A stretch of 64,000 bases of DNA from Nitrosopumilus sp. (GCA_965218695.1 OZ244651.1:608001-672000); one strand, 5' to 3'; numbered from the stretch's first letter, positions 13,561-46,545 are shown. Program-made: numbers and translations. Notes: generated by a model not told the origin, from the sequence alone.

Positions 13561-13767
13561 GTTAACAATACCTCGTACGCCCTGACCAGCCTGCGCTTGT
13601 CCGGATACGTCTCTGTCAGGTACTGCATTGCCGACTTTAGCGCAGATCTCTGATTGCTTGCCGATATGTCAGACCACTTGTGCTCGGACATGGGTTGGCC
13701 AGGACTGCCGGCGGTTGGAAACTGCATGACGTTTTGCCCCTTTTAACGAAAGCAGCCACGATCCAGC

Positions 13768-14037
13768 ATGGCAAAGGATTTCCAGGTCAAATACGACGGG
13801 CATGATGCCGTGCTGGCCGTGGGCGACTCCGTAACGTGCAAGACAGACGACAACAAGCAGCACGCGTTCTTTGACGTGCAGCTGGACCGCGTGTGTTTGG
13901 CGGCGCTGTCGGACAAAAAGTCAGTCAGGCTCAACTGGTTCGTGCAGGACGGCGTGGAGACGGCGTCGTTCAAGTCCAAGTACGCGGCTAGAATAGTGGA
14001 AGAGATACGCGCCGGGGGTGCTGCGCTGCATGGATGA
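13768..14037 (+). CDS. Hypothetical protein
   Basis: 89-aa ORF; CCCC-TTTTAA 27 nt upstream. Confidence 0.65.
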   Translation: MAKDFQVKYDGHDAVLAVGDSVTCKTDDNKQHAFFDVQLDRVCLAALSDKKSVRLNWFVQDGVETASFKSKYAARIVEEIRAGGAALHG

Positions 14038-15442
14038 TGATAATGACGGCATAGACAACATGTATGACGTGGACAGGCCTGCAGAAGGTGCCGGCCAGGC
14101 AGAGGCCCAAGAACCGGCCGGAAGCCGGAAGTCCGCAGAAGGCCCGGAACCGGCCGGAAGCCGGCCTGCAGGCGGGCCCGCAGAAACAAAGGAGTCTGAC
14201 AAGGATGCTGCGAATTCGGACGGCAAGAAATACTCGTCCACCGTCGAGCAGGGCACGGAGTTTGAAAAGCAGGTGGCCGATCTCATGAAATCATACGGCT
14301 ACAATGTGACGCACGACGTCACGTTGGTTGGGACTTCAGGAAACACGCACCAGATAGACGTGTATGCCGAGTACAAGTGCCCGATGCACACCAGCAAGAT
14401 GATAGTCGAGACCAAGTCGTACAAACACAATCTGAGCAAGGACATAGTGATGAAGCTGATGCGCCAGATGGAGGATCTCGGCATAGACAGGACGGTGCTG
14501 GCAACAACCAGCGACTTTTCCATCGGCGCCAAAAAAGAGGCAGCCGCGTACGGCACCATAGAACTGTGGAACGGCGACAAGATCAAGGAATTCATGGCAA
14601 ACAAGGGAATTGACACAAGCGACGCGGGACTGCTCGGTGCTGCCAAGCGATTCATACGGGCCAAGGTCAACGGCAAGCGGATCCGCAAGAACGCGTCCAA
14701 ATCCGCAAAAAGCAGGTCCGGCGGCGCCATATTCGGCAGGGGCAAACCGAAGGAAAGCGTCACCCAGGTCGAGATGGTATCGTACCCGTATCTGGACGTC
14801 AGCGTCCAGACCAACATAACCAGGATGGAAAAGACCGGCTGGAGGAAGCGCGAATCCGTGACCCGCACGGTGGTGGAACACGTCACGCTGGACGGCCGCA
14901 CGGGCGTGCTGGCGGATTTTGCGAAAAACGGCCCGTCGTACAAGTATGCGTATCTTGATTCCATGCTTGACGACGAGATGGCGATCCTGCACGAAGTCGC
15001 CGGAAAGCAGTCGTTCGGGCGTGAAGAGATCAGCAAGACCGGCCTGTCGTCGGGTGCCGCAAACACAGCCTTGCTGAAGATGGCCGGCATCGGCATCGTC
15101 AAACAAATGGGCACAAAACCAGTCAAGTACGTCTCGAAAGCGCCGTTTCCGGCGGCTCCGGCCGCGTTGAGGGGCATAGGGAAACTGTTCGGCAAGGGCA
15201 TGATTGACCGGGATCCCGGGAACCGAATAATAGACATCCGCGCCAGGATCGGCGACATGGAAAAGAGCCTTGGCAGATATTGGAATGGATGCAAGGTCAT
15301 TTCAGTCGAGCAGGTATATTACCCGTACTATGACGTGCGCTACGAATCCACCGACGACAGCAAGCGCAACGAGATGATAGACGGCATCACCGGCAGGCCG
15401 CAAAAGTACCTGGCAAAAGTCATGGCAGCCGACGATGATTGA
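14030..15442 (+). CDS. Mrr-like restriction endonuclease domain protein with C-terminal extension
   Basis: GTEFEKQVADLM..GY, QIDVYA, IVETKSY, LATTSDFS..A, IELWNGD (Mrr_cat pattern); disordered N-terminus with an EPAGSR repeat. Confidence 0.8.
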   Translation: MDDDNDGIDNMYDVDRPAEGAGQAEAQEPAGSRKSAEGPEPAGSRPAGGPAETKESDKDAANSDGKKYSSTVEQGTEFEKQVADLMKSYGYNVTHDVTLVGTSGNTHQIDVYAEYKCPMHTSKMIVETKSYKHNLSKDIVMKLMRQMEDLGIDRTVLATTSDFSIGAKKEAAAYGTIELWNGDKIKEFMANKGIDTSDAGLLGAAKRFIRAKVNGKRIRKNASKSAKSRSGGAIFGRGKPKESVTQVEMVSYPYLDVSVQTNITRMEKTGWRKRESVTRTVVEHVTLDGRTGVLADFAKNGPSYKYAYLDSMLDDEMAILHEVAGKQSFGREEISKTGLSSGAANTALLKMAGIGIVKQMGTKPVKYVSKAPFPAAPAALRGIGKLFGKGMIDRDPGNRIIDIRARIGDMEKSLGRYWNGCKVISVEQVYYPYYDVRYESTDDSKRNEMIDGITGRPQKYLAKVMAADDD

Positions 15443-15472
15443 TTCTTATACAGTTTTGGACCATTCTGTTCC

Positions 15473-15601
15473 ATGGAATTGATATTCCATTGTCCTGGTT
15501 GCGGCCATTGCATGTCATACGCGAGCCATGAATACGACAGGTTGGAGCGCGACTGCGAGGATTGGGACGTTGGCGGATGTCCGTCATGCGGCAAAAAATA
15601 A
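15473..15601 (+). CDS. 42-aa CPxCG zinc-ribbon micro-protein
   Basis: MELIFHCPGCGHC...GGCPSCGKK; TC-TTATA 27 nt upstream; below ORF-track cutoff. Confidence 0.7.
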   Translation: MELIFHCPGCGHCMSYASHEYDRLERDCEDWDVGGCPSCGKK

Positions 15602-15714: not shown

Positions 15715-16206
15715 TCAAGCGATTAACCCGGCCCACCTTTTCACGTCTATCGGGTCCAGCATGGTGCATTCTATGCCAGCCGCCTTCAGCAGTTTGTCGT
15801 CATTTTCAGCATACGTCCCAATGCAGACAATCCTCCTGATTCCTGCCGTGATTAACATTTTGGTGCACTCCAAACATGGAACCAGCGTCGTGTACATTGT
15901 GGAGCCGCCGACTGCCACGCCCAGCGTGGCGCAGTGCACTATGGCGTTGGATTCTGCGTGGCTGCAAAGGCAGCGTTCAAGTGATTCGCCCGATCTTATC
16001 TTGCCTGCCTTTCGTTTTGCGCACCTGTCGCACCCGCCCTCGTAACAGTTGGCTAGCCCGGACGGCGTGCCGTTGTATCCCGCAGAAAGCTGTATGTGGT
16101 CACGTACAATCACGGCCCCGATCTTGCGCGTGAGGCAGTTGGAGCGCAATTTGACCAGCTCGGCCTGCAGCATGAAGTACGTGTCCCAGTCCGGCCTTGC
16201 GTCCAT
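15715..16206 (-). CDS. dCMP deaminase
   Basis: RPDWDTYFM, RSNCLTRKIGAVIV, GYNGTP, HAESNA, PCLEC zinc motifs. Confidence 0.92.
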   Translation of the reverse strand: MDARPDWDTYFMLQAELVKLRSNCLTRKIGAVIVRDHIQLSAGYNGTPSGLANCYEGGCDRCAKRKAGKIRSGESLERCLCSHAESNAIVHCATLGVAVGGSTMYTTLVPCLECTKMLITAGIRRIVCIGTYAENDDKLLKAAGIECTMLDPIDVKRWAGLIA

Positions 16207-16279
16207 GCATTGAATGGACGGTTTTGTTTTAAGGAGAACTTCAAGTTGGTTCCTTTTATCCAAACACGCCCTTTATTCC

Positions 16280-16465
16280 ATGCCGCCTGTAGTAATACGG
16301 ATAACCGAGTTGAGCTGCGAGCATTGCGGCCATTCATTTTTACGGGCACGGCGAGTTTTACCGGATGGTTCAGGATGCCAACGCCTGGGGGAAGAACGGC
16401 TGTCCGCAATGCGGCAGACGCTAGGCCGTAATTTTCCGTTCTGCATGATGCGCCCTAGTGTGTAA
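16280..16465 (+). CDS. Small protein with a CxxC motif
   Basis: MPPVVIRITELSCEHCGHSF; CC-TTTTAT 26 nt upstream. Confidence 0.5.
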   Translation: MPPVVIRITELSCEHCGHSFLRARRVLPDGSGCQRLGEERLSAMRQTLGRNFPFCMMRPSV

Positions 16466-16517
16466 AGACAGGCGTTAATGAGATGAACTCCTTTTATCTG
16501 ATTCAAATCTGCCCTGC

Positions 16518-19500
16518 ATGCCAGAGATTAGTCGGTTCAAAAAGCGAAGCGGCACGGTCGTGGATTTTGACTCTGACAAGATAAAGAACGTCATACAGCG
16601 GGCGCTGTCGGCAGACGGCGGCGACGAGTCTTTGGCAGAATCGCTTACCGCCCAGGTGGTAGAACGGCTCGGCAAGGAGGGACAGGAGATGCAGTCCTCC
16701 GAGCACGTCCAGGACTTGGTCGAACTGGTGCTTATCGACAACGGCCACAGCAGCGTCGCAAAGTCGCTCATCATTCACCGCCACGAGAACCGCAAACTCA
16801 AGGACGAGAAGAAGGCGCTGCTGAACGTAAAGGTGCTGGATCCGGTGGCCAAGAAATTCGGGATCAACAGCCTGCGCGTGCTGGCCTCGCGCTGCCTGGC
16901 AAAGAACCCGGACGGCGAGATTATCGAGACGCCCACGCAGTGCCTTGAAAGGGTGGCAGTCGGAGTCGGCCTGGCCGGCATACTGTACGGACGCGAAGTG
17001 TTTGACCGCGACGGCGGGCACGCGCAGGACAGGTCCGAGGCGATAGCATACCTGGAAAAACTCGACGCGTTTGACAACAAGTTCTACATTGGCAAATATT
17101 ACCTGAACAAGTGGCATTTTCGCTCCCTGATAAACCAGTACGTGCGGCTTTGCGACGCCGGCTGCATGAAGGCGTCGTTCAAGACCGTGCTTACCATGCT
17201 GGCCAAGAACCGGTTCGCGTGCCTGGAGACGACAATCCAGCACTATTATGCCATGATGGAGGCACAGGATTTCCTGCCCAATTCCCCGACGCTGATGAAC
17301 GCCGGGGGCCGGCTGGGCCAACTGTCAGCGTGCTTCGTGCTGGACATGGAAGACAATCTGGATGACATCATGAAGACTACCAGCCAGACGGCCGTAATAT
17401 TCCAGAGCGGGGGCGGGGTCGGAATCAACTATTCAAAAATAAGGCCGGAAGGCGAGATGGTCGCCTCGACATTCGGCGTCGCGTCCGGCCCGGTATCGTT
17501 CATGAATATCATCAACGAGGTGACTGAAGTAGTCAAGCAGGGTGGAAAGAGGCGCGGCGCCAACATGGGGATCATGGAGGTCTGGCACCCGGACATCGAG
17601 AAGTTCATCACCAAAAAGATGGAGCCCGGCGAGCTGGAGAACTTCAACGTCAGCGTCGGCGTGTGGGAGGACTTTTGGGATGCCCTGGAAAAGGGTGAGG
17701 AATACTACGTGTTGCACGACCCGCGGAACCAGAAGGTCGTCGGCAGGATAAACCTGCACCATTTGGTTGATGTCATAGCGCACTCCGCGTGGGAAAGCGG
17801 CGAGCCTGGCATGCTGTTCTTTGACCGCATCAACCAGTACAACGTGTTTGCCAAGGCGAGGAACGGGCCGCTGAGGGCTACAAACCCGTGCGTGACTGCA
17901 GACACGCTGGTATTCACGAAGTTCGGCCTGCAGAAGATTGGCGACATGTGGGACACGCAGGAGGACGTCATACCGGCCATAGATGGCAGGATGGGTGCCG
18001 AGCCATTCAGGTGCGGCTCAGCTGTCAAGGCAAGCGGCGTGAAACCAGTGTACAGGTTGGTAACCCGCGAAGGCTACGAGGTCAGGCTTACCGCGGATCA
18101 CAAGGTCATGACGGAACGGGGCTGGGTAAGGGCAATTGATCTTAAGGGGTCTGACCAGATATATCTGACGAACCGTCCTGGCGGGTTTGGCGATCAGGGG
18201 GATGCCAAACTCGGGAAGGTATTGGGCTGGCTTGTCGGGGACGGGACGCTTTACGGCAAGAGGGCAGTACTGCCGTTCTTTGGCGAAAAGCAGGAATTGG
18301 CAACAGAGTTTGCCGGCATGATGGAGGCGTGCGTGCCCGCGCCGGTCGGTACCAGAAAACACTATTCCATCGGGGCCTCAAAGATCAAGGACCGGGACGA
18401 GACGCGCGTGGGATCGATGAGGTTTTACAGGGTGGCTTCCGCTCATGGGTTGACGCCCGGGCACAAGCTCGTGGTGCCTGAGAGCGTGTTCCTCGGGACC
18501 AAGGCCATGCAGGCAGGATTCTTGAGTGCGCTGTTTACCGCCGACGGGCACGTGGAAGGCGGCAGACACCGTGGCACAGCTATTATACTCTCGTCAATCT
18601 CGCACGAATTGCTGTCCGGCGTGCAAAAACTGTTACTCAATTTTGGCATAGCCAGCAGGATATACAGGGACAGGTGGAACGAACGAGTCAAGATGATGCC
18701 GGATGGCAGGGGCGACAAAAAGGAATACAGGTGCAAGCCGTGCCACCAGATACAGATAAGCAAGGACAACGTACTCAGATTCAAATCCGAAATAGGTTTC
18801 ATGCTAAAATCAAAAAATAACAGAATTGAATTAAATTTGTCATGCAACAAGAACGGCCCCAAATCTGAACTCTTCCTGGCTAGGTTCAAGGAGATAGTTC
18901 CAGAAGGAAATGAGCAGGTGTTTGACATTACCGAGCCCAACACACATTCGTTTGCCGCAAACGGCATAATCGTATCAAATTGCGCCGAACAAAGCATGTA
19001 TCCCTATGAATCCTGCAACCTCGGCTCCATAAACCTGTCCAACATGACAAGGGACGGCAAGTTCGACTGGGAAAGATACGAGGCAGCGATACGCGTCTGC
19101 ACCAGGTTCCTGGATTCCATCATAGACGTCACGAACTATCCGATACCGGAGATTGAAAAGGCCAGCATAGAAAGCAGGCGCACCGGGCTGGGGGTAATGG
19201 GCGTGGCCGACCTGCTGTACAAGCTCGGCATACCGTACAACTCCAAGAAGGGATACGAACTGCAGGACAGGCTGGCCGAGGCGCTGTCATACTATTCCAT
19301 GGACGAGAGCGTCGCGCTTGCAAAAGAACGCGGCGAGTTCGCGCTGTGCCCAAAATCCGAATACCCTGACGGCAAGATCCCGATTGCCGGATACTATGAA
19401 AAGGCCGCAAGGCACGACTGGGACGGCCTCATCGAACGGATCAAGGAGCACGGCATACGAAACGTCCTCACCACCACGATAGCCCCCACAGGCTCGCTGG

Positions 19501-20210
19501 CCATGATAGCAGAATGCTCAAACGGCATGGAGCCGGTATTTGCCATATCGTATGAAAAGCGCGTCGCGGTGGGCAAGTTTGTATACACGAACAGCGTGGT
19601 GCGCCGGATCTTGGAGGAAGAGGGCATATACAGCGACGAGCTGGCGCAAAAGATATCCGACAGCGGCGGCTCGCTGCGCGGGATTGCCGAGATTCCGGCC
19701 AAGTACCGCAACCTGTTTGTCACGGCCATGGACATACACTGGGCGGACCACGTCATGGCGCAGGCGACGTGGCAGAACTGGATAGGAAACGCCATCAGCA
19801 AGACGATAAACATGCCGCACGACGCCTCCCCTGAGTCGGTAAAGTCGGCGTACCTGCTGGCCCACGAGCTTGGCGTGAAGGGGATTACCATTTACCGCGA
19901 CGGCTCCAGGCACGCGCAGGTGCTGCACAAGTCGGGCGGGGGGAAGGACTCGTGCACCGCACCGGTCATGCCGCCCAGCAAACACGTCATGGAATACGTG
20001 CAAAACGGCATCACCAACGCCTACGTGCGGAAGAACATGAGCGGCCTGGACGGCACGGTGCAGATAAGCGTGGAGCGGCCCCACAGGGAACCTACAGTCC
20101 AGGACAAGCAGGAACGCGACATCTGCCCTAACTGCAAGAGCCGCTTGACGTTTGCCGAAGGCTGCTCGATGTGCGTCGAGTGCGGGTACAGTGGCTGCTC
20201 GTCTGGATGA
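16518..20210 (+). CDS. nrdJ: Class II (adenosylcobalamin-dependent) ribonucleotide reductase with ATP cone, intein and C-terminal zinc ribbon
   Basis: ATP cone KKRSG..VDFDSDKI; PNSPTLMNAG, QLSACFV, RRGANMG, TNP|C-A-E-Q, TIAPTG, ISKTIN, GVKGITIYRDG, EGCSMCVECGYS. Confidence 0.95.
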   Translation: MPEISRFKKRSGTVVDFDSDKIKNVIQRALSADGGDESLAESLTAQVVERLGKEGQEMQSSEHVQDLVELVLIDNGHSSVAKSLIIHRHENRKLKDEKKALLNVKVLDPVAKKFGINSLRVLASRCLAKNPDGEIIETPTQCLERVAVGVGLAGILYGREVFDRDGGHAQDRSEAIAYLEKLDAFDNKFYIGKYYLNKWHFRSLINQYVRLCDAGCMKASFKTVLTMLAKNRFACLETTIQHYYAMMEAQDFLPNSPTLMNAGGRLGQLSACFVLDMEDNLDDIMKTTSQTAVIFQSGGGVGINYSKIRPEGEMVASTFGVASGPVSFMNIINEVTEVVKQGGKRRGANMGIMEVWHPDIEKFITKKMEPGELENFNVSVGVWEDFWDALEKGEEYYVLHDPRNQKVVGRINLHHLVDVIAHSAWESGEPGMLFFDRINQYNVFAKARNGPLRATNPCVTADTLVFTKFGLQKIGDMWDTQEDVIPAIDGRMGAEPFRCGSAVKASGVKPVYRLVTREGYEVRLTADHKVMTERGWVRAIDLKGSDQIYLTNRPGGFGDQGDAKLGKVLGWLVGDGTLYGKRAVLPFFGEKQELATEFAGMMEACVPAPVGTRKHYSIGASKIKDRDETRVGSMRFYRVASAHGLTPGHKLVVPESVFLGTKAMQAGFLSALFTADGHVEGGRHRGTAIILSSISHELLSGVQKLLLNFGIASRIYRDRWNERVKMMPDGRGDKKEYRCKPCHQIQISKDNVLRFKSEIGFMLKSKNNRIELNLSCNKNGPKSELFLARFKEIVPEGNEQVFDITEPNTHSFAANGIIVSNCAEQSMYPYESCNLGSINLSNMTRDGKFDWERYEAAIRVCTRFLDSIIDVTNYPIPEIEKASIESRRTGLGVMGVADLLYKLGIPYNSKKGYELQDRLAEALSYYSMDESVALAKERGEFALCPKSEYPDGKIPIAGYYEKAARHDWDGLIERIKEHGIRNVLTTTIAPTGSLAMIAECSNGMEPVFAISYEKRVAVGKFVYTNSVVRRILEEEGIYSDELAQKISDSGGSLRGIAEIPAKYRNLFVTAMDIHWADHVMAQATWQNWIGNAISKTINMPHDASPESVKSAYLLAHELGVKGITIYRDGSRHAQVLHKSGGGKDSCTAPVMPPSKHVMEYVQNGITNAYVRKNMSGLDGTVQISVERPHREPTVQDKQERDICPNCKSRLTFAEGCSMCVECGYSGCSSG
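17889..18980 (+). mobile_element. Intein with LAGLIDADG homing endonuclease in RNR (364 aa)
   Basis: Starts CVTADT, block B LTADH, LGWLVGDG and FLSALFTADG, ends NGIIVSN before the +1 Cys of NP|CAE. Confidence 0.92.
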
Positions 20211-20258
20211 GTCCAGTCCGCATCAGACTGCCTTTTTAGCAAACCACGCAATGCTTGC

Positions 20259-20627
20259 ATGGTAACGACCGTGCGCCTGATGTACGCGCTGCTGGGAGGC
20301 GGTTCCATGAAGACCGACGGGGCAAAGGCCGGATGGCTGGCCGGGTTCGTCAGGAACATGCCCGACGGGAACGCGGCAATCGTGTACGGCATGTGCGCCG
20401 CGTGCGCGTACATCGGACGCGAAAACAAGGCATACAAGGAGTTGGAAATCGGCCATGCTGCAAATTACAGGGATTCAATATTGCGTGCAATCGACGTGTC
20501 GATGCGGTCCAGAACAGACGGCGGCCTGCGGTGCGCAAAATGCAAGGACGGCATCGACATCACCGACGAGATAATCCAGAACTACAGGAACGGCAAGATA
20601 TTCTGTGCCGCGTGCGCGAAGCGCTGA
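20259..20627 (+). CDS. Hypothetical protein with C-terminal zinc ribbon
   Basis: CAKC...FCAAC; CC-TTTTTA 26 nt upstream. Confidence 0.7.
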   Translation: MVTTVRLMYALLGGGSMKTDGAKAGWLAGFVRNMPDGNAAIVYGMCAACAYIGRENKAYKELEIGHAANYRDSILRAIDVSMRSRTDGGLRCAKCKDGIDITDEIIQNYRNGKIFCAACAKR

Positions 20628-23701: not shown

Positions 23702-23863
23702 TACATGCATAATTCGCGGTACCAATCCACCAACTAATGACGATCCTGTGCGGTGTGACGAATGTGGATTTCAGTGTACTGGTACTGGCCATGAGAACTG
23801 TCATCCAGGCTGATCACAATTCCATTTTTAATTCCCTTTATACCATTTTGGACCAATGCGTAC

Positions 23864-24094
23864 ATGGTAAATTGTGCTATATGCAATAATGCTGTTCAAG
23901 GACGGGACTGGCTGATGTGCAACGATTGCGCTCTCTCGAACAATGTCTGCGTCCTGTGCAAGAACACTATACAGTGGCGCGACGGGCTAGTATGCGACAA
24001 CTGCGCGCGTTCGAAGAACGTCTGTAGTAATTGCGGGAATCATTGGGACGGGGCAAATATTACTGGTAGCCTGGTGTGCGACGACTGCGACTGA
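23864..24094 (+). CDS. 76-aa protein of three tandem double-CxxC repeats
   Basis: CAIC..CNDC / CVLC..CDNC / CSNC..CDDC; CCC-TTTATA 27 nt upstream. Confidence 0.8.
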   Translation: MVNCAICNNAVQGRDWLMCNDCALSNNVCVLCKNTIQWRDGLVCDNCARSKNVCSNCGNHWDGANITGSLVCDDCD

Positions 24095-25306: not shown

Positions 25307-25393
25307 ACCAAATCATGGTCTTGTCAGGCAGGGCACATTTTTCAAATGCGGTCACGAATTCTGTCCTTATACGGCTCTGTATCATGCAAAACA

Positions 25394-33068: not shown

Positions 33069-33149
33069 GGAACAACGGGCTGAATTCTATAAAAAGGGAG
33101 TTATAGCGTGCCCGCTATACTGCTTTTATGCTGAACGGTTCTTGGCAGC

Positions 33150-35244: not shown

Positions 35245-35304
35245 CGGGATTGATGGAATGGTTGGCATAAAAGGAAACCCAACTCCTTGTACCAAAATGC
35301 CGCT

Positions 35305-35553: not shown

Positions 35554-35565
35554 TCCCTCGGCATC

Positions 35566-35760
35566 ATGCCAAAATACAACGTGACTGTCCAACTGTCAGG
35601 CATAAACGGCAACGCCATCGCAACGCTCAACGCCGTCAGTCGGGGGCTGAAAAGGGCAGGCGTGCAGCAGTCAGAGATAGACAAGTTTCAGAGTGAAGCC
35701 ACGTCCGGCGACTATGACCGCGTGATCCAGACGGCCATGAAATGGGTCAACGTGGCATAG
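35566..35760 (+). CDS. 64-aa phage-type conserved small protein
   Basis: LSGINGNA...LKRAG...EATSGDYDRVIQTAMKWV fits a GxDGNAF...SGDYxxL pattern I recall from phage proteins; CCC-TTTTTA 27 nt upstream. Confidence 0.75.
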   Translation: MPKYNVTVQLSGINGNAIATLNAVSRGLKRAGVQQSEIDKFQSEATSGDYDRVIQTAMKWVNVA

Positions 35761-35817
35761 CCACTTTTTTACGGAAGGAACCGACAAAGCCATATGTGGA
35801 TTTTCCACAAACCATCC

Positions 35818-36042: not shown

Positions 36043-36074
36043 GGCCGTTTTAAGCAAAAAACATCCCATAGTCC

Positions 36075-38052
36075 ATGAGTGAATGCGCCTGCCACACCCC
36101 GACGCCGGTGTTGGACGAGGTAGCAGGAGAAACCGTCTGTTCCAAATGCGCGCGCGTGCTGGATGATTCAATGGAACAACCATGCAAGAACCAGGGCCAG
36201 AACCACATGGTGCTTGGAAACCGCGTGTCATCCACGAAAATACAGGGAAACGCCAAGATGCGGCGCGCCAGCAGATGTCCAACAGGGTCGACCAAAAAGG
36301 AATGGACACGAGACATAATCCGTAATTAGAAATTGTACATATTTTCCTATACTGTGTAGGTTTTTTGACTCCTATCAGGTTGCTTCCCGGACTAGGAGAA
36401 CCCTGAGGTTGGCAAATCCGCAGACGATGTCATTGACGGTGTCGTATTTTTTCAGGCGGTTTCGGTAGACACCGCTCATTATGCGAAACCGTTTGACCCT
36501 GCGGATGGCGTGCTCCACATACACCCGTGCCTTTGAGTGCTTTTTGTTGAATTCCTTCTGCTCGGGGGACAATTCTGCGCCTTTTTGCTTCTTGTACGGC
36601 ACTACTGCATCCCGGTCAGGAAATTCTTTGTTGATCCCCTGGTATCCGTTGTCCAGGATCTCTCTGACTTTGATCCTTTCCTTGTCCTTGCTCCCGTCCT
36701 TGCGTGGAAGGTTGTCAGGGAATGTCGGGTGTTTCTTTTTGAATACTGCAAAGTCGTGGATCCTGCCCGGGGAATGCCGGGTCTTGTGAATGATGAGGCC
36801 ATCTGTGGCCGACGTGTACTGGATCTTGGACGTGTGCCTGTGTGCCTTGCCCGAGTAGTGGGACCGTTCCATGTCCTTGCGTCCGGGACGTTGTATCTGC
36901 TGCTCTGAGGCATCAATCAGGGCAGTCAGGCCCGGAATGATCTCCTCAAGATCGTCAAGCGTCTTGGTGGCCTTGATGTTGGCGTAGATCTTTGACGGAA
37001 GCGGAACGCACTGCCGGATCGACGGCTCCAGTGCCCCCATGCTGCGGGACACGCTAGCCTGGCCCATCTGAAACACCATGGCAAGAAGATCCTGCGTAGC
37101 GTATGTCCTGTAATAAAACAGGACCAGAAGAAACCTGTTTTTCAGATCCAGTTTCCACCTGCGTCCGGCACCAATGCCGCGCACCCTGCTTCTTTTGGCG
37201 AGTCGCTTTTGCTCTGCCTTGGGGTATTTTTTTGCCAGCCGCCCTGCCACCAAATTAAATTCGGAGACTGTCAGTCCAGTGCACCGGATGAACAGTTTGG
37301 GCTTTTTTGCTAATTTGTCGTATAATGACATGCTTTGACATTGGCAATCAGAATAAAACACGGCTGACGTATAGTTTTGATCATCGGGCAAGTTCGAATT
37401 GACATGCAATTCCATGCAGTCAGCCAGATTTGTCCTGCAATGCGTCCAATCTCGTGATTATGCCCAATTACGGATGATGTCTCCGGACTACATGATAAAA
37501 TCATGCTGCAACAAACTCTGGATTCCACAGACGGTAGCGGACCGCGCCATGATCATATTTGACAAGTTCAGGAAGAGTCTTGGCGGCGGAAACCCGGCCA
37601 ACCATACAGCGGCTGTCGTATACATGGCGTGTAGGGAGCGCGGCGTGGCGCGCAGCATGAAGGAGATATTTTCGGCACTTGACGCAGATTCCAAGAAGGC
37701 CCGCCGCGCGTATTACAAGCTGCACAAATCAATGGATGCTGTCTTGCCGGTCCCAGATGCGGCCGGTTTTGCCACGCGTTTGGCATCAGACCTCAACTTA
37801 CCAGAAAAGACGGCGCGCAGGGCGTTAAAGATACTGGAACGGTTGAACGATGCGGGCTTGACGACCGGACACGGTCCAACCATACTGGCCGCGTACGCCA
37901 CGTATGCCGCATTGAACCGGACAGAGGGCGTCACGCAAGGAATGATAGTCAAGGCGGCCGGGATATCCGAAGCTGTGCTGCGTGAGCTGGGCGTGGCAGT
38001 CAGGGCCGATGAGTTTGCAGTCAGGATGAACGCGACAGGTTCAGTCAGGTGA
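36075..38052 (+). pseudogene. tfb: Divergent transcription initiation factor TFB (TFIIB), interrupted by an IS5-family element
   Basis: Zinc ribbon CAC...GETVCSKCARVL; cyclin repeats AAVVYMACR..GVARSMKEI and TQGMIVKAAGISEAVLR; removing 36310-37483 restores a 267-aa frame. Confidence 0.88.
36310..37483 (-). mobile_element. IS5-family (DDE_Tnp_4, ISL2-like) insertion sequence
   Basis: TIRs GAGACAT(A/C)ATCCGTAATT; transposase with IDASEQ.I.RP, YSGK..H, DNGYQG, RVYVEHAIRRVK. Confidence 0.92.
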
Positions 38053-38248: not shown

Positions 38249-38587
38249 ATGTTAGTGTCCGGCATAGTCATAATCGTCCTGGTCGTGGCAGGCGCGGCAG
38301 TGATGTTCTTCTTGACAGAATCAAACAACCAGACCATAGCAGCGGGTACCATAATCGCCATACATGACAACGAGCGCGTCAAGGAAGACGTGGACATCGT
38401 GTGGGGCGGCCAGGACTTGAAGATGCACAACGCCGGGCCTGAGACGGAGATACTTGAATACCGCGTGCTTGATGATGACGGCACCCTACTTCGCGTCTGT
38501 ACGGTCGAACATGAGGTGGGAGCGTCCGTGAAAGAGACGGTCAATACGGCGGCATTCGACGAATGCTGGCAGGAGTTTTTGACATGA
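38249..38587 (+). CDS. Secreted/membrane protein with N-terminal hydrophobic helix (pilin-associated-like)
   Basis: MLVSGIVIIVLVVAGAAVMFF followed by ERVKED..HNAG..EYRVLDDDG. Confidence 0.65.
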   Translation: MLVSGIVIIVLVVAGAAVMFFLTESNNQTIAAGTIIAIHDNERVKEDVDIVWGGQDLKMHNAGPETEILEYRVLDDDGTLLRVCTVEHEVGASVKETVNTAAFDECWQEFLT

Positions 38588-41286
38588 GGACAAAACTGGC
38601 TGCAGTCGCATTGGTATTGGCAATAGCCGCCGCAGCATACGCGGGATTCGCAGAGGACGCGTTTGCCAAACAGCTCCAGGTGGTTACGTCGCGCGGCAAC
38701 GTCTTTACCGTAAAGGTTGACATACCGACCAACAGCACGCATACTGTCCTGGTAATCAACAGCACGCAAATAATCAACAGCACGCAGGTGATCAACAACA
38801 CCAACCCCGGGATAACCTTCCCGATGGAAATCGTCACGAAGAACGCAGAGGGCCACATCGTCTACGGGAACGGCACGAGTGGTGCAGAAAAGCCGCTGGA
38901 CCCGTACACGTTCCCAGGCGAGTTTGAGTTTGCAGCAGTCGTGCTGGACGCGGACGCCAAGAATACGATGCCCATACCCAAACTCCTGGCAAAATACGAG
39001 ATGGTTAATGACGATTCGCTGAACTGGATAGAGGACACCGACACCGGCGACAACATCCTGGTTCCGCTGGACGTGGATCCGGCAACATACGGGAACGGGT
39101 GGAAAGTGGAAGGCGATTGGACAGTACTTGACAACACTCCAGGGGAAAGCCGCAAGACACAGGCCAGCATAGACCTCCCGCTAAACGAGCAGCTCACGAT
39201 GAAGGGCGACATTTCAAGCGGCATGACGGTCCAAATCATATCGGTCGTACGGCCTTTCAACCCCAACACCGTCAGTTATTACAGTCAATACGTATCGTCT
39301 TCTTCTTCGTCTTTGGAAAAAAAGTATTTCGAGTATGACGGCCCGACATTCAGTTATTTTGGCAGTAAATACATACCCAAACAATGTACATGGTGGCCAA
39401 ACAGTTTGACATACCAGGGATTCAAGACCAACTATCCGAGTCCCGGACAGGGACTCGGGCCAAACCACATCGTCTATAATGGATACGGACCTACCAACGT
39501 GGCCACTAGCGCGGGCTGCGCAATACAACCACATATAACCACATACATAAATGGACCCGGGTCGAATATCGGATTCGACGGCGACCGATGGACAGGTTAT
39601 ACAATATACGGAGAGATGTTGAGAAGCACCAGCGGGCTTACCCTGTATCCAAACGTTTACGCTCTTGGCTGCCAGTCGTCAACGCACATAAGCGTAACGA
39701 CAAGTTATAGGGAAGGCGGAAGTAGCGGCATACACACCGTGAATGTGCCGTACACTAAAACGCCTACTGTGACTTGTGTCAGTGAACACGGATACCAAAA
39801 AATCACGAGAATTGACATCCCAGGCGAGTCCATACGAAAGAAAATAGAACGTGTTGGTTATGGTTCTGCTCCCACCTTGACGTTTTACGTGCCTGTGACT
39901 GCATCTGTCCGGATCGACATACCGCAAATACCGCCCACAATACAGGTGCTGCACTCGTTCAGCGGGCAAGACATTAGCCATCCTTTCACTATGCAGTCGT
40001 ACAGCGGAAACCTGTATCTCAGGACGGTCGGCGGTGACGCCACGTCGACGGCACAGATCAAGGTGTTTGAGGGAGAGGAGATCCCGCCGGCATTCATAGT
40101 TACGAACATGCCAGAGAATGCGCCGTACAGGATAACGGCCGACGGCATCACCATAATATCCGGCCTGACGTCGAGCGCAGGCGGCATAGAAGTCACTCCT
40201 GCAGACATGGATTTTGATTTCTTTGAGGGCAAGAATCTTGAACTCACGATATGGCCCGACTCCCTGTCCAGACGCGGAGGCAGCAGCGATGCCGTGATGT
40301 TTGACGCATACAACAAAGAAACCAAGGACTTTCGGTGGCACGTTCCAATCATATACGTGGCCGAATCCATGCTGCAGGTAAGCATAGATCAAGACGGCAT
40401 GGACATTGCCGGAGTCATATTGGAAGGCGGGTCTGACATCAGTTTTGATGGGCGCCAGGGGTTGTACAATGACGGGGACGAGTTGCTTGTCCCGCTGTAC
40501 CCGGATGCCAATGCGATTGCAATCAGGGTCAACGGGGAATGGGCAGACGGCATCCTGGCAGATATCCAGCAGTTTCCGCATTCTGTAAGAATGACAGAGG
40601 CCGAAAACTCCGCGACCAAATACGCTTTCAGCAATGACCTGGGATTCACGGTGGCGCGCGCGTCTGACAGGATCGCCGCGTTTGCCAACAGCACCGGCGA
40701 CATGCAGATCCAATTCGTCAATGCCAAGGCGTCCGGAAGCGCGGAATTCCCGTTTGACTCCTATTACTATGGAAACTTTACCCCGCCCGGAGCGCCTGAC
40801 ACGGAGGAGTGTTTCGTGTATGACAGGTGCGGTGTATGGGTGGACAGTGCCACGCATGCAGACCCGACCAGCGTCAGTTGGGGCCCGATAACGCAGTGGG
40901 TAATAGACAACAATCCGGCGGGGGTGCAGCAGGTGATGGCAGCACAGGGGCCGCTCACGGTATACGTCAATGCGTACGTAAACGGCGAATGGGTCCAAGG
41001 CCAGACGATATTTGAAAGCACGGACGTCACTGTCGTGCCCGGCGATTACTTGGACAGGCACCTCGTATACCAGTACAACGGCGGCCTGGAATACGGCATG
41101 GAAGACGACGATGCAACCATGCGCGTGCCGGTCCAATCAGGCGACTTTGTGGAGTTTGTGGTGAGCTCCAGAACAATGGCGGCCTCGACTCCGGTGTATG
41201 CAGGCAGCGGCACTTCAGCAGACGTATGGTGGGGAAACAGCACGTCGCGAATCCACAGCGGCCTCATGCAAGTCAGCATGCCGTGA
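38584..41286 (+). CDS. Large secreted beta-rich surface protein (~900 aa)
   Basis: Signal peptide MRTKLAAVALVLAIAAAAYA; ATGA overlap with the upstream gene; repeated INSTQ sequons. Confidence 0.8.
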   Translation: MRTKLAAVALVLAIAAAAYAGFAEDAFAKQLQVVTSRGNVFTVKVDIPTNSTHTVLVINSTQIINSTQVINNTNPGITFPMEIVTKNAEGHIVYGNGTSGAEKPLDPYTFPGEFEFAAVVLDADAKNTMPIPKLLAKYEMVNDDSLNWIEDTDTGDNILVPLDVDPATYGNGWKVEGDWTVLDNTPGESRKTQASIDLPLNEQLTMKGDISSGMTVQIISVVRPFNPNTVSYYSQYVSSSSSSLEKKYFEYDGPTFSYFGSKYIPKQCTWWPNSLTYQGFKTNYPSPGQGLGPNHIVYNGYGPTNVATSAGCAIQPHITTYINGPGSNIGFDGDRWTGYTIYGEMLRSTSGLTLYPNVYALGCQSSTHISVTTSYREGGSSGIHTVNVPYTKTPTVTCVSEHGYQKITRIDIPGESIRKKIERVGYGSAPTLTFYVPVTASVRIDIPQIPPTIQVLHSFSGQDISHPFTMQSYSGNLYLRTVGGDATSTAQIKVFEGEEIPPAFIVTNMPENAPYRITADGITIISGLTSSAGGIEVTPADMDFDFFEGKNLELTIWPDSLSRRGGSSDAVMFDAYNKETKDFRWHVPIIYVAESMLQVSIDQDGMDIAGVILEGGSDISFDGRQGLYNDGDELLVPLYPDANAIAIRVNGEWADGILADIQQFPHSVRMTEAENSATKYAFSNDLGFTVARASDRIAAFANSTGDMQIQFVNAKASGSAEFPFDSYYYGNFTPPGAPDTEECFVYDRCGVWVDSATHADPTSVSWGPITQWVIDNNPAGVQQVMAAQGPLTVYVNAYVNGEWVQGQTIFESTDVTVVPGDYLDRHLVYQYNGGLEYGMEDDDATMRVPVQSGDFVEFVVSSRTMAASTPVYAGSGTSADVWWGNSTSRIHSGLMQVSMP

Positions 41287-41816: not shown

Positions 41817-43455
41817 TAGTGCCCATCATAAAGATCCGGAACGGTAAACCCAGTTTTGGTTCCGGTACTGCCTGAATAATCAAAACCTTAAGATCAGCGA
41901 TACCTCCGCGCTTAATCATGGCTGGTACAAAACGCCGAAACGAAAACATACCCAAGGGAGACGCGTTCATGGCAGGCACATCCATGAGGGAGATCCAAGA
42001 GGCCCTCAAAAAAGAGAAGAACGGCAAAGCAGTCAACATACTGCTTGCCTGCATGTGGAGGCGTGAGGGAGAAGACGGGGTATGGATCGCAGGCAAGCTG
42101 CACGTGCCGGTCAGTACCATTTACGACCGGCTGCACCGCATGCACTTGGGCGGTCTTGATGCATGTCCTGACAAGACCAAGCCCGGAAGGCCAAGAAAGA
42201 TCCAGCCAGAAATCCATTCAAAGATATCCGAGTCCATCGACAGGCAGCCGGGCGGATGTGGGATAAAATCCAACGTCTGGACCGGAAGGCTGATTCTGAT
42301 CATGATCTCCAGTCTGTTCTCCATTGACAACGTCTCTCCCAGTACGGCATACAGGACGATGCACAGGCTGAACAAGACATACAGAAAACCCGGAAGGCCG
42401 CGCCACGGCCGCTCGCCTTCTGACGAGGTAAAGGCAGAATTTAAGCGCGGCCTGGCAAAGGAGATTTTTAGCAATACCGTGGATGGACACCGCCTCTTCT
42501 GGATGGACGAGTCCCATTTTACCACAAAAACGATCCGCGGCATGACCTGGCTTGCGCGTGGCCTGTCAATACCGCAGGTGATCAAGCCGTTTGGCAGGAG
42601 CTACACGTGCTTTGGGGCACTGGGATTGGACGGTCTGCTACACCACAGGTACTATGACTGCGGCAACACCGATTCGATGATTGATTTTGTCAATGGCCTG
42701 CACGATGCCTACGGGAAGGTACTCTTGGTGATGGACAATGCATCCATCCACAAATCCAAAAAGCTGATGGCAGAGTTGAAAAAGTACGATGGGGACGTCA
42801 GGATTGCCTACCAGCCGACATATTCGCCGGATCTCAACCCAGTCGAGATGGTCTGGAAAGAACTCAAGAGGTACGTCGCCAACGGCCTGTACCGGCGTGT
42901 GGAGGACATGACGGGAGCCATGGACGAGATGATTCAGTCAGGCACGGTAAGTCTGCCCCAACTGCCAGAATACGCGACAGATGCAATCAGGCGCGCCAAG
43001 GCGACTGCTGCTGCCTGACGACTTGGGGGCGAGGTGCGCGTACCTGTGGGAGTCAGGCCCGATCCTTCGAGTATGGATCACGACACTCGTGCCGCGCATC
43101 TAGCCCGCCGTGGTGCATCCGGCACAGCCAGTCCTCGACTGTATCGGGTGACATGTAAAACATGTCTGCAATCTCCGAGCACCCGTCACCTTCCTTGCGC
43201 CGTAGGCAAATGAGTAGCGGAAAACTGCTCCAGGCATACCTGTCCATCCCGTGTACTGCCCGGATGTCATTGGCAGATATGCCCTCCATGAATTTGTCCC
43301 CCTTGGGCACCTTGTCGTCCGGGTGTTTTTCTCCGGTCACGGCATGGTCTGGGAGTGGAATGATCTAAACGTTTCTGCTGTCCCGGTAGTGCGATGCCGG
43401 ACGCGTGACGTGCCAAAATCCCCGTCACCATTCCGGATATTTATGACGGGTACTA
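41817..43455 (+). mobile_element. IS630-family IS with transposase 41918-43018 and a convergent second ORF
   Basis: ~30-bp TIRs TAGT(G/A)CCC(A/G)TCATAAA(G/T)ATCCGGAA(C/T)GGT with TA duplication; MDESHF, MDNASIH, SPDLNPVE. Confidence 0.92.
43053..43340 (-). CDS. Stand-alone paralog of the IS630 transposase N-terminal HTH domain
   Basis: PKGDKFMEG..LL.C..RKEG..IA..T..WL.RMHHGGLDA aligns with the transposase's PKGDAFMAG..LLAC..REG..IA..T..RL.RMHLGGLDA. Confidence 0.75.
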   Translation of the reverse strand: MTGEKHPDDKVPKGDKFMEGISANDIRAVHGMDRYAWSSFPLLICLRRKEGDGCSEIADMFYMSPDTVEDWLCRMHHGGLDARHECRDPYSKDRA

Positions 43456-44089
43456 TACCACGAGTCCGAACAGACCGCTGGATGGAGCGAAAGCGGTAGC
43501 GGTGGATATGACGCCTCCTTTATTGACAAACTTGCTCCGATGGCAAGGCCGTTCCTGCGAGATGCCGGCATATTCTTCGCGCTGCTGTTCGTCTCGGCTG
43601 TCCTGACGTTCGTGGCATGGGGCGAGGCGCCGTCAAGCACGACGCTCCAGGCATATTGGACATACAACGGAATGCTTGACTATTGGGCAACACTGCCAGA
43701 AAGGATCGGTGAATTTGTGCCTGTCGTTGACTGGGACACCATGGTTGGCACCGCGTGGGAATCGCTTGTTTGATCCCGGCCGGCGTGCCATGACGAGGCG
43801 TGAATCTGCCATCGCGTGAATGACCCTCAATTGGAACCATCCCGCGGTACGTACGCATGCATGCACAGTTTCTGCAACGCGATGCTGTCTGTCTTGCCGC
43901 GCAAATGCCAGGTCATCTGCCAAACCATATTGTAAACGGCTCCGAGGTGGCACCGCCAAGATGTGTATATCTTAAGCTCATTCCGGCCAGATTGCCTTCG
44001 TACCGGTGCTCAAATTCGGCATGGCCTTTCCATGACATGCTGCCATGAAGCATTATGTGTCGCGTAGGGTCGGTGCGCGTCCCTCTGTC

Positions 44090-45634
44090 GTATGAATTCA
44101 CCTGCCCCTTATATCAGTCGACCAACTTCTTCGGCCACGCTCTTGCCATGTGCCCTCCACGTGAGGACGCACGTGACAAAATCTGCAAGGCGCTTCATGG
44201 CCTTGGAGCCGCCCTTGGTCTGCCCGCTTATCTTGCGGAACACCACCAGGTAGCGCAGCGCCCTCTCGCTGGCGTTGTTTGTAGGCTCGACGCCGGGATG
44301 CTCCAGGAACGCAAACATGCGGTGCAGGTGCCTCTCGAGCTTGTCCAGCACCTTTTGCATGTCGTCATCGTCACCACCACCACCGGCATCGCGGTACCGG
44401 TCAAGCACGTCCTGCATGGTGCGGTTCATCGTATGCCGCAGCTGTGGCGAGCGCGCCTCCTGCGCGGCCAGCAGTTTTGCCCTCTCAAACACCCACTTGT
44501 GGTCCTCGTGGAGCTGCCGCCGCCGCCGCCGGACACGTTTGGTCTCGGGAGGCACGGCGCAGTATTTTTCTGCCAGGTGCCTTGTCTGCCGGAGGTCGTG
44601 CGCCCAGCACGACTGGTGCATGCCGTCCTTGTCAAACCTGTCATATCCGGTGTACCCGTCAGTTATCGCCACCCCGTCAAATTTGTCCATGGCATCGAGC
44701 ATGAGCGTGGCCCTGCTCTGGCTGATGTTTATTGCGATGTTTTTGCCCGACTGTGCCACGTTTGCGTGTACCTTCTGGCCGTCGTTTCGCCAGCTGGTTT
44801 CGTCAAACCCGGCACAGTCAGAAGCCTCCACTTCCCCGAGGATCCTGCCTGCCTCGTGGCCCGAGGCGTCCCCGACGCGTGCCATGATGTTGTTGACGGT
44901 GGATCCTGCAAGCATAATGCCCGTTATGGAGCGCACCGCGACCGAGATTCCCTTGAGCGGCACCCGTGCCGCGCGCAGTTCTGAGACGAGTCCGACCATG
45001 CCCTTGCCGAAGTTGCCCCGCCGCGGCAGGTCGTTTGGAGCATCTTCCCTGCGGCCGCATGAGCCGCATACTGCAGTCTCCACGCGGTGCCGCGTCTCGC
45101 ACGCAGTCACCCTGATGTCCGTGATGTCCCGCACGCGCGGACTGCCAATCGCCATCCGGCCGCCGCCGCCGCCGCACCCGCATTCCGGGAGCACCGGCAC
45201 CCGCCTCCTGCCCGACTTCCTGCGCCCGAACCTGTGGGATACGGTCCTTTCCGGGTCGTGGGGGCGCGACGCCCCCGCGTGTCCCTTTCTTCCCCCGCGC
45301 TTGGATTTGCCCTCCTTTTCCTGTTTTTTTGCCCGCTCCCTCTTCTGGGCCTTCCATTCCAGGGATTCAGATGAGGGCGGCGTGTTGGGGTTTGTATAGT
45401 ATGTCATGAGGCGTTCGCTGTACCCCAAGGCCCTTTCAAGACGTTCTATCCTGCCAAGTGCCTTCTCAAGATCGGATTTGAGGGTGGCAATCTCCCGGTT
45501 CCGTGCTAGGAGTTCCTCTTTTAGCTGGTCCCTGCTCATGTGCCGTGAATTTACCATGTAAAGTGATGTGTATTGCCAGCATATGGATCAGTATGATCAT
45601 TTTTTTGTGACAGGAAGGACAGGTGAATTCATAC
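44090..45634 (-). mobile_element. IS66-family insertion sequence (single transposase ORF 44109-45557)
   Basis: TIRs GTATGAATTCACCTG(C/T)CC; 8-bp TSD CCTCTGTC (44082-89, 45635-42); PPSS, DETSW, TDGY, QSCWAH, PTNNASERALR. Confidence 0.95.
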
Positions 45635-46174
45635 CCTCTGTCCGCTCAAACCTTTAAAAGAAAAGCATCCCAATACAAAACGTGGTTATTATAAACTGCA
45701 ATATTGTAGCGAAAGTTCGTATTTAAACTGCTTTTGGAAAAACTGGTATTCCCGTTTTGGCCGGTTCCGTGTAGGGCACAAGATACGGATTGCCGCCGTT
45801 GCACAACTCGATGTTTGACGCATGTCTGCAGTGTACCCTGCATGCTGGGAATCGGAGACGGCACAATGAAGAAGTTTTGCGGCCGTTTTATTAGATTCAA
45901 TGCCTGCTTCCCATGGAACGCAGGCGGGCATGTCGCTGGGGGCCGATATCGGACATGTCAGTGGTTGTGAGCATGTCGGCGTTCTGGGCCGTCTGCGGGT
46001 GGCTGTTTGCGCAGATCATGTTTCCCGAACTGCCGCACATGGTGCCAATCACGATATCCCTGATACACATAACGCATGTGGCATATTTTGCCATTGCAGA
46101 CTGGCGTGCGTCAAGAACTATCCCTTGAATGCCGAATAGTAACGTGCTTCGTGGCAGTGTCACTTGCCGCATGA

Positions 46175-46321
46175 TCATTTGAGAAAGCAGTATTTGCACT
46201 GCGATGCGTATCCGGCCTGCCTGTTCTTGCCGCAGTCGTCGCACCACCCGTTGCCTATGCATGACTCACATACGGTCACGTTACTCTCACACCGATCCAT
46301 TCTGCAATGATTGCACATCAT
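46175..46321 (-). CDS. 48-aa GWC-family double zinc finger (isolated copy)
   Basis: MMCNHC-x11-CESCIGNGWCDDCG-x10-CKYC; CCC-TTATA 27 nt upstream. Confidence 0.78.
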   Translation of the reverse strand: MMCNHCRMDRCESNVTVCESCIGNGWCDDCGKNRQAGYASQCKYCFLK

Positions 46322-46545
46322 GGACGGATATGCTCCAAAATGGTATAAGGGAAAAGTCACATGCAGGCAGACAGGCAGCACCGTATGGCGTTATGGTTCA
46401 TCCAATGTGAATGCAAATGGACCGCAAAGGCGCATCATGCACGGAATCTGGACGTGAGCGATACTGTCGTTGAGGTGGCACGCCCGTAAACCACTGCAAT
46501 CCAAGACGGGGTTTGTATAAATATCGAAAATGATCTACGTATCCC

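Follow-up and report, generated by a model that had tools for sequence, protein, structure and literature searches.

What reads the promoters of a mobile element when those promoters differ from the promoters of its host? This question is raised by a 64,000-nt stretch of DNA from a Nitrosopumilus sp. (G000:C1:608001-672000; hereafter the window), which belongs to a 2.63-Mb genome of nine contigs (G000) that is crowded with insertion sequences (IS) and in which McrA was not found. Window positions 13731-46350 form an island with the features of an integrated mobile element. An earlier note on this DNA had claimed that about 20 island genes share a TTWWA box placed 26-28 nt before the start codon, preceded by pyrimidines and devoid of the purine-rich TFB recognition element (BRE), and that the island supplies a divergent transcription factor B (TFB) to run them as a private regulon, in the manner of a phage sigma factor. 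The observation is real and is wider than reported. The same promoter type, here called class I, recurs in other elements of this genome and in two sister species, and our preferred reading, held with moderate confidence, is a promoter of the mobilome at large that host factors recognize.

Class-I promoters in the island

All 19 sites listed in the earlier note carry a T/A-rich box at the coordinate given there. The box lies 26 nt before the start at eight sites, 27 nt at ten and 28 nt at one, and the two bases before it are CC at 16 sites, TC at two and GC at one. Downstream stands an ATG at 17 sites, a TTG at one and the 5′ end of a tRNA-Met gene at one. The TTWWA wording was only partly accurate, as it is exact at the quoted base in 12 of the 19, and the other seven read TTTTT, TTTAT or TTAAT there; at these seven the box is real and the motif is one base off or inexact. 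The promoters mapped in the island, including some that the earlier list had missed, are as follows.

13737..13770, + strand: class-I CCCC-TTTTAAC, 27 nt to ATG 13768; 89-aa gene, then the Mrr nuclease gene; paralogue C1:758326 has the same promoter type
15442..15475, + strand: class-I-like ATTC-TTATAC, 27 nt to ATG 15473; 42-aa open reading frame (ORF) without homology support
16204..16236, - strand: class-I CTCC-TTAAAA-CAAAACC, 26 nt to ATG 16206; dCMP deaminase
16250..16282, + strand: class-I TTCC-TTTTAT-CCAAAC, 26 nt to ATG 16280; 61-aa ORF, divergent from the dCMP deaminase promoter
16488..16520, + strand: class-I CTCC-TTTTAT, 26 nt to ATG 16518; ribonucleotide reductase (RNR); box conserved in the G002 island
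20229..20261, + strand: class-I TGCC-TTTTTA-GCAAACC, ATG 20259; 122-aa gene
23833..23866, + strand: class-I TCCC-TTTATAC, ATG 23864; 76-aa gene, paralogue C1:509003
25363..25396, + strand: class-I GTCC-TTATACG, ATG 25394; 180-aa gene, then the family B DNA polymerase (PolB) gene
29566..29598, + strand: class-I-like GTGC-TTTTAT, ATG 29596; 57-aa ORF
29786..29892, + strand: class-I GCCC-TTTTTAT with tRNA-Met gene (29817-29892), 27 nt to the first base of the tRNA
30330..30362, - strand: class-I TTCC-TTAATA-GCAAACC, ATG 30332; 147-aa gene
30855..30887, + strand: class-I GCCC-TTATACG, ATG 30885; 51-aa gene, paralogue C1:760725 with the same promoter type
31058..31091, + strand: class-I TCTC-TTTTTAT-GC, ATG 31089; 62-aa gene
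32135..32167, + strand: class-I GTCC-TTTTAT, ATG 32165; 55-aa gene with tandem paralogues nearby
33066..33099, - strand: class-I TCCC-TTTTTAT, ATG 33068; 106-aa gene
33120..33152, + strand: class-I CTGC-TTTTAT-GC, GTG 33150; 73-aa gene; absent from the earlier list
34262..34295, + strand: class-I CTCC-TTTTACG, ATG 34293; 59-aa gene
35242..35276, - strand: class-I TTCC-TTTTAT-GCCAACC, 28 nt to TTG 35244; thymidylate kinase
35535..35568, + strand: class-I TCCC-TTTTTACG, ATG 35566; 64-aa gene, 77% identical in G002
35763..35796, + strand: class-I-like GCCAC-TTTTTTACG, ATG 35794; 82-aa gene, 92.5% identical in G002; absent from the earlier list
36044..36077, + strand: class-I-like CCG-TTTTAAG-CAAAAAAC, 27 nt to ATG 36075 of the broken TFB gene; nearly identical in G002
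46319..46352, - strand: class-I TCCC-TTATACC, ATG 46321; 48-aa ORF at the right island edge

The 180-aa gene at 25394 and PolB probably form one operon.

These sites are far more frequent than chance would give. Counted as (CC|TC|GC)+TTWWA followed after 26-28 nt by a start codon that opens an ORF of 40 aa or more, the pattern occurs 16 times in the island, compared with 1.09 +/- 1.09 (maximum 6) in 500 first-order Markov simulations. The same pattern is found at no site in window positions 1-12000 and at none in positions 47000-64000, and the flanks of the island carry host-type promoters. Contig C1 outside its class-I-rich region (480-780 kb, 12% of the contig) has 1.09 such sites per 32.6 kb against the 16 of the island. 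Many of the genes behind these sites have support of their own. Ten of the listed starts (13768, 16206, 16518, 20259, 25394, 30332, 31089, 34293, 35244 and 35566) were also picked by a gene caller blind to promoters (a 3-periodic Markov model with long ORFs as its training set), whose 2431 genes are the basis of all promoter statistics given here. In addition, the short genes at 13768, 20259, 23864 and 30885 have paralogues in other islands, that at 32165 has paralogues inside the window, and the gene at 35566 and its neighbour at 35794 have orthologues in the sister species G002. Copies of these micro-genes at C1:758326, 508994 and 760722 stand behind the same promoter type.

Class-I promoters differ from host promoters in sequence context and spacing

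The distance between box and start does not by itself set the island apart. Genome-wide, TTWWA piles up at -31 to -26 of predicted starts (514 occurrences among 2052 genes, with a peak at -29), so leaderless genes are widespread in the host, and a TATA box some 27 nt ahead of the ATG does not mark the island. A separate class nevertheless emerges from a three-class mixture model of positions -42 to -15 in 444 boxed upstream regions, which was blind to location. From an initial 519 regions, 75 with 70% or more identity to another had been dropped before this run, and it replaced a run before de-duplication that had picked out only identical IS upstream regions. Its minor class has the consensus ccCcTTTTAagcaa, and on C1, 35 of the 56 members of this class lie in 480-780 kb, whereas the two host classes together have 31 of 324 members there (Fisher odds ratio 15.8, p = 3e-17).

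The class-I architecture consists of a C-tract at -31 to -28, a TTTTAW box with its 5′ edge at -27 or -26, often a GCAAAC(C) just after the box, and a C at -1. Among the 35 class-I genes the box starts at -26 in 24 and at -27 in 10, which is 3-4 nt nearer the start than the host box (mode -29, range -33 to -26), and C occupies each of positions -30 to -28 in 44-54% of the genes. The host mixture classes are A-rich or purine-rich where a BRE is expected, and class I has no purine-rich BRE; the six bases before the box hold a mean of 1.6 purines in boxed island genes and 3.26 elsewhere. A strict form of the pattern, CCTTWWA-N20-22-CATG, has 30 matches on C1, of which 23 lie in 480-780 kb (p = 8e-16), whereas none of the 22 matches to the purine-preceded control AATTWWA-N20-22-CATG do.

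The initiator of class I is a pyrimidine at -1, followed at once by the start codon's A or G or by the tRNA's A. This C at -1 is found in 80% of the 35 class-I genes and 40% of 341 host genes, and its position before the A of the ATG implies leaderless transcripts; we infer that transcription of class-I genes would start at the ATG. The tRNA genes, an independent group of strong promoters, offer a comparison outside translation. Read by eye, host tRNA genes have an A/G-rich stretch and then a TATA box near -30, whereas the island tRNA-Met gene has GCCC-TTTTTAT with the box exactly 27 nt before its first base, which supports a fixed box-to-start distance that is independent of translation. A second tRNA-Met gene lies in another class-I-rich patch (C1:502300-502374), with its box at -28 behind GCG, and both element tRNA-Met genes begin AGC. 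The mixture classes and the tRNA comparison thus agree with the earlier note that a pyrimidine-preceded class without purine BRE is distinct from host genes and host tRNA genes. The class is real, looks functional and is tied to the mobilome.

Class I spreads over several elements and species

The proposal that the regulon is private to the island did not hold, since the same promoter occurs in other elements at C1:487-761 kb and in two sister species. The class-I genes of G000 form several patches on C1 at 487-761 kb, and these patches also contain FlaI-like, TadC-like, MmeI-type restriction enzyme and tyrosine-recombinase-like genes and many IS; a T2SSE-like gene lies at C1:534780 and a T2SSF-like gene at C1:548821. 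The sister species G002 and G018 were compared, and about 160 kb of a further genome, G062, was sampled. G002 has 26 strict matches, 15 of them within 1,106-1,226 kb (p about 1e-13), and its related island places an RNR gene behind CCCC-TTTTAT. G018 has 14 strict matches, nine of them in two elements (p about 1e-13), one of which carries a tyrosine-recombinase-like (integrase-like) gene and a TraG-like gene and is located beside the host ATP synthase. The RNR proteins of G000 and G002 are 76% identical; in the DNA of the two copies, the sequence from the box down to the ATG is conserved and the sequence upstream of the box has diverged. In the G062 sample, most genes whose best matches lie outside the G000 island region have a box at -28 or farther from the start, with purines or mixed sequence ahead of it. 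These genes are mostly host-type, so class I is very probably not some lineage's native promoter.

The factor does not follow the motif throughout. The earlier note had suggested looking for co-occurrence of the motif with its TFB clade; both are present in G000 and G002, whereas G018 has clusters of the motif without the factor, as searches there with Pfam TFIIB, the island TFB and the 714-kb TFB described below found no TFB of the island kind.

Two candidates were set aside during this comparison. A second RNR-type promoter in G002 (1,945,060) has only a 70-aa remnant downstream, and an excess of matches in genome G047 comes from sequences that share a ...TTGGGG.CATG tail and are suspected to be a repeated element. 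Elsewhere on C1, back-to-back class-I promoters (CCAGCATAAAAGCCCTTTTTAACAAATG) stand ahead of divergent genes at C1:600979-601037, and two large proteins of 1652/1653 aa (C1:540330-545288 and 732249-737210), which are 84% identical, are each encoded behind AAATCCCC-TTTTAT; the 540-kb copy has no Pfam match.

The island TFB lacks a B-reader and is broken

As the earlier note had stated, the island carries a gene for a divergent TFB whose recognition helix is altered. The helix reads GISEAVLREL in the window copy, G[IV]TDVxLRxL in its clade and GVTEVTIRNR in host TFBs, and the five canonical TFBs of G000 all keep the ...VTIRNR helix. The window gene (TFB-i) stands behind a promoter of class-I-like type, is cut by a 1.17-kb IS and has no intact ORF. 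Contigs from four public runs (DNA-like) break at 36308/36311 and 37482/37483, and the IS lies in the TFB gene there too. The pieces are as follows.

36075..36310, + strand: N-terminal piece of TFB-i, with a putative CxC...CxxC zinc ribbon and no B-reader (tblastn to the 554-kb copy, residues 11-66; alignment)
36311..37482, - strand: IS that splits the TFB gene, with a DDE_Tnp_4 transposase at 36375-37415 (Pfam); at least 18 near-identical copies in the genome
37474..38052, + strand: C-terminal piece of TFB-i, with two cyclin repeats and a helix-turn-helix ...AAGISEAVLREL (Pfam, tblastn)

PF00382 matches the window TFB twice (C1:645474-645728 and 645753-645983). In an alignment of seven clade members with four host TFBs, the clade has a putative ribbon of the form CxC...CxxC in place of CxxC...CxxC, and a 34-column gap in all seven members removes the B-reader segment, within which EWRSF is found in two of the four host TFBs. 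Between ribbon and linker the clade is about 29 residues shorter than human TFIIB. Residues 91-289 of human TFIIB, and also Pyrococcus woesei TFB (1d3u, 1ais), align with the clade member P0002, whose match to the human TFIIB ribbon is below significance. The positions aligned with human TFIIB V283 and R286, which we take to contact the BRE, are mostly V/I/A and R, and the R286 position is kept in five of the seven clade members.

G000 has three element-type TFBs, namely the window gene, a copy at C1:553851-554630 that is 61% identical to it and lies beside an extra TATA-binding protein (TBP) gene, and a very divergent gene at C1:714523-715350. In the 554-kb copy, the first seven codons, which are identical to P0002, are in another frame than residues 7-256 (C1:553858-553880); the class-I box is placed for the out-of-frame ATG, and the CxC is lost through the frameshift. 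This copy is either frameshifted or mis-assembled. The only TFB-i copy of G002 is split between residues 92 and 121, at another position than the window copy.

TFB-i is also rare. It was found in 2 of 151 genus representatives, 2 of 401 family-sample genomes and 2 of 401 order-sample genomes, samples that exclude the genomes of the six full-length relatives (P0002, P0003 and P0005-P0008) found among 5.8 billion proteins. A scan of viral contigs gave no relatives, and scans of metagenome and genome contigs gave one distant match each, at 23-24% identity; the only match in named genome contigs is in a metagenome-assembled genome of the Nitrososphaeraceae.

Related sequences occur outside this clade. 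A 674-aa protein (C1:536507-538531), whose gene adjoins a FlaI-like ATPase gene, combines an N-terminal winged helix with a single C-terminal TFIIB cyclin repeat, and PF00382 is also found inside 715- and 732-aa open frames of G018 and G002, which are possibly homologues of it. One canonical host TFB paralogue (C1:1983431-1983928) has only 165-208 aa, comprising the core domain, and for its counterparts in G002 and G018 the open frames span about 300 aa.

Of TBP genes, G000 and G002 have four each and G018 has two. Two core groups are 98-99% identical across the three species, and the four extra TBPs form a third, faster-evolving group whose members are 81-93% identical to each other. The extra genes (G000 552778-553335 and 1613989-1614546; G002 C1:1168960 and 1977605) lie in or near class-I-rich regions, the G000 gene at 552,778 being inside such a region and that at 1,613,989 being 7 kb from the only nearby class-I match. 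We also considered whether a changed TBP saddle could account for class I and set the idea aside: host TBP-A and the element TBPs share 81-85% identity, and the examined substitutions are not obviously at positions that we presume to contact DNA.

What reads the class-I promoters

We propose that the island is an old, IS-ridden integrated element with spare genes for RNR, dCMP deaminase, thymidylate kinase, PolB and tRNA-Met, in which nearly every transcription unit would start from the class-I architecture. Class I would then be a hallmark of the integrated mobilome in this group of ammonia-oxidising archaea. The most likely explanation, although we hold it with no more than moderate confidence, is that class I is a mobilome-wide, BRE-poor core promoter read by host factors. 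Host TBP, TFB and RNA polymerase would accept it as a BRE-poor promoter at the short end of the host spacing range, and element-borne factors, namely the B-reader-less TFB clade and the extra TBP group, may modulate it when intact. Class I persists, and is conserved between diverged copies, where the element TFB is broken or absent, and it is therefore most probably read by the host; as the island TFB is broken, it is probably not today's reader. Moreover, the TFB gene itself stands behind a class-I-like promoter, so that host factors must start at least that gene. Several points weigh against this explanation. The promoters may persist because the TFB genes broke too recently for decay, and the near-identical IS copies do suggest a recent insertion. 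An assembly error could account for the frameshift in the 554-kb copy, the divergent element TFB at C1:714523-715350 is an uninterrupted ORF, and the gene starts are the output of our own gene caller. In addition, the five host TFBs keep the canonical helix although class-I promoters have no A-rich BRE, and the presence of extra TBPs near class-I regions in both genomes with TFB-i fits element-borne basal machinery.

A widened form of the model in the earlier note is possible, though we doubt it. Here the B-reader-less element TFBs (TFB-i and the 714-kb TFB), perhaps with the element TBPs, would be sigma-like specificity factors that read the C-tract in place of the BRE and set the shorter TATA-to-start distance, and an element that has no such gene would rely on one that does within the same cell. 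In Sulfolobus, TFB paralogues are known that serve gene sets of their own, with changes in promoter architecture (bioRxiv 10.64898/2026.09.06.749720; PMC6101594). TFB-i and class-I promoters occur together in G000 and G002, TFB-i lies beside an extra TBP gene (C1:552778-554630), and the two TFB differences, in helix and B-reader, match the two promoter differences, in the bases before the box and in spacing. However, the frame is interrupted in all three TFB-i genes of the two genomes, no such TFB was found in G018 despite its class-I elements, and TFB-i is rare in the genus, family and order samples. The class-I-like promoter of the TFB gene cuts both ways, as it would allow positive feedback but also poses a bootstrap problem for a factor whose own promoter is class I. 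The residues aligned with V283 and R286, the presumed BRE contacts, are mostly conserved, and a box at -26 or -27 is within the host range. A stronger version, which we consider rather unlikely, is a complete orthogonal initiation system composed of the element TBP group and the B-reader-less TFBs, with the C-tract for a BRE, a start 3-4 nt closer to the TATA box and the factor-less elements as satellites that would be active only alongside a factor-bearing element. If this were true, repeated TFB breakage would be the host's or the element's way to keep islands silent. An operator function is an explanation that we regard as improbable. The C-tract and GCAAAC would be sites of an element- or host-encoded repressor or activator that switches the mobilome, while host factors read the TATA box. 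Such sites would suit a motif that extends to both sides of the box and is common to unrelated genes and elements, and virus-wide sequences around core promoters, with a virus-specific element after TATA, are described for Sulfolobus viruses (PMC11065993, PMC5569661). Small, strongly conserved genes without an assigned function lie just upstream of TFB, and the 82-aa protein is 92.5% identical in G002 compared with 66-76% for other island genes. This protein has no Pfam match and no usable atlas match, its single-sequence model (predicted local distance difference test, pLDDT, 71.6) gave no fold match at E <= 0.001, and Pfam, the atlas and this fold search revealed no DNA-binding domain in the small proteins. 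Furthermore, the flanks are short and degenerate with no obvious dyad, and the 3-4 nt shift of the box is left unexplained. Least probable is that class I is the native promoter of a DNA-donating lineage, carried along by horizontal transfer and of no particular significance in the present host. With 54-73% identity to their host paralogues, the island genes have diverged from them, which indicates that the island came from a related archaeon. A native donor promoter is at odds with the host-type promoters of most sampled G062 genes outside the island matches and of the G000 host and tRNA genes, with the conservation of the box between diverged copies, and with the clustering of matches in few regions of G000, G002 and G018, of which those examined carry integrase-like, IS or conjugation-related genes.

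Relation to known systems

Like the systems described by Krupovic et al. 2019 (PMC6563490) and Makarova et al. 2016 (PMC4858521), whose authors predict a regulatory role for the TFIIB/TFB homologues, the elements studied here are mobile elements of ammonia-oxidising archaea that encode such homologues. The former paper places TFIIB homologues in all thaumarchaeal conjugative elements, next to ParB and with VirB4/VirD4, and the latter in archaeal type IV pilus loci as predicted regulators. The 530-550 kb region of G000, with FlaI-like and TadC-like genes near a TFB homologue, resembles such pilus loci. In contrast to the conjugative elements, the window island showed neither VirB4/VirD4 nor pilus genes nor a TFIIB by ParB, and no conjugation genes, among 20 island proteins scanned with Pfam. 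The words promoter and TATA occur nowhere in the main text of Krupovic et al. 2019 (its supplementary files are outside this count), so that main text describes neither a link to a promoter class of its own nor the loss of the B-reader nor the broken genes.

Sulfolobus provides the closest cases of TFB paralogues. TFB2 binds the promoters of a set of cell-division genes, including its own, as shown by chromatin immunoprecipitation (bioRxiv 10.64898/2026.09.06.749720). It is thus a TFB paralogue tied to a gene set, and its targets differ from TFB1 promoters in BRE-to-TATA spacing. Unlike TFB2, which is chromosomal and serves the cell cycle, the island TFB is element-borne, B-reader-less and broken, and the class-I promoters differ in base composition as well as spacing. 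TFB3 is an incomplete paralogue that activates DNA-damage genes together with the main TFB (PMC6101594); whereas TFB3 works through its zinc ribbon and a coiled-coil motif, TFB-i retains the two cyclin repeats and has no B-reader. Viruses of Sulfolobus share a regulatory sequence among early genes (PMC11065993), and SIRV1/2 have a GTC element after TATA (PMC5569661). As in these viruses, one type of promoter with conserved flanks serves many unrelated genes of an element. However, archaeal viruses are described in reviews and in these papers as using canonical BRE-TATA promoters and host factors (PMC11065993, PMC5569661), and class I differs from their promoters, which keep a purine-rich BRE, in having a C-tract for the BRE and a shifted box. 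In the literature searched, with supplements outside its coverage, we found no mobile-element-specific, BRE-less promoter class described for ammonia oxidisers.

Phage-encoded sigma factors are the familiar case of an element that brings its own promoter-recognition subunit. Unlike them, the island TFB is broken or absent where class-I promoters persist. The class-I motif clusters in few regions of three genomes and provides a simple sequence signature of integrated mobile DNA in ammonia-oxidising archaea. It also shows that the core-promoter grammar of an archaeal mobilome can differ from that of its host. This raises the question of whether mobile elements of archaea use a TFIIB-family factor of their own to shield their transcription, in the way that phages use sigma factors. 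Should the factor and the promoter form a working pair, they would offer an orthogonal archaeal expression system and a natural experiment on the B-reader and start-site distance. If host factors read class I, it would show how far a BRE-less promoter can drift and still function.

Other genes of the island and its borders

The remaining features of the island are given below.

13731..46350: integrated mobile element, IS-ridden, with a replication and nucleotide-metabolism module, tRNA-Met, the broken TFB and many short genes (Pfam; 16 class-I sites)
14018..15442, + strand: Mrr-type restriction endonuclease gene (Pfam); 59% paralogue at C1:758582
15715..16206, - strand: dCMP deaminase gene (Pfam); 70% identical to the host copy beside host PolB
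16518..20210, + strand: RNR gene with intein and LAGLIDADG endonuclease (Pfam); about 60% identical to the host copy
25966..29454, + strand: PolB gene with intein (Pfam); 73% identical to host PolB
34687..35244, - strand: thymidylate kinase gene (Pfam); 54% identical to its host counterpart, whose promoter is host-type
38249..41286, + strand: two function-unassigned genes (about 112 aa and 907 aa) without their own box, downstream of TFB; 82% paralogue at C1:702736
41918..45557, both strands: IS630-type (41918-43018, +) and IS66-type (44109-45557, -) transposase genes (Pfam); many copies

The 112-aa and 907-aa genes are probably in one operon with TFB. The 907-aa protein (38563-41286) has no Pfam match and a 66% homologue in G002, and its N-terminus is hydrophobic by eye. 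A 1622-aa gene to the right of the island (49977-54845) was considered as a paralogue of the two 1652-aa island genes and rejected, as BLAST shows no relation; a homologue of it also adjoins the related island in G002. Inteins with LAGLIDADG endonuclease domains are present in both RNR and PolB of the island, and the host paralogues are about 370 and 320 residues shorter, respectively, and so are probably without inteins. Directly at the left island edge, window positions 12211-13560 hold a TnpB/Cas12f-like (IS605 OrfB) gene.

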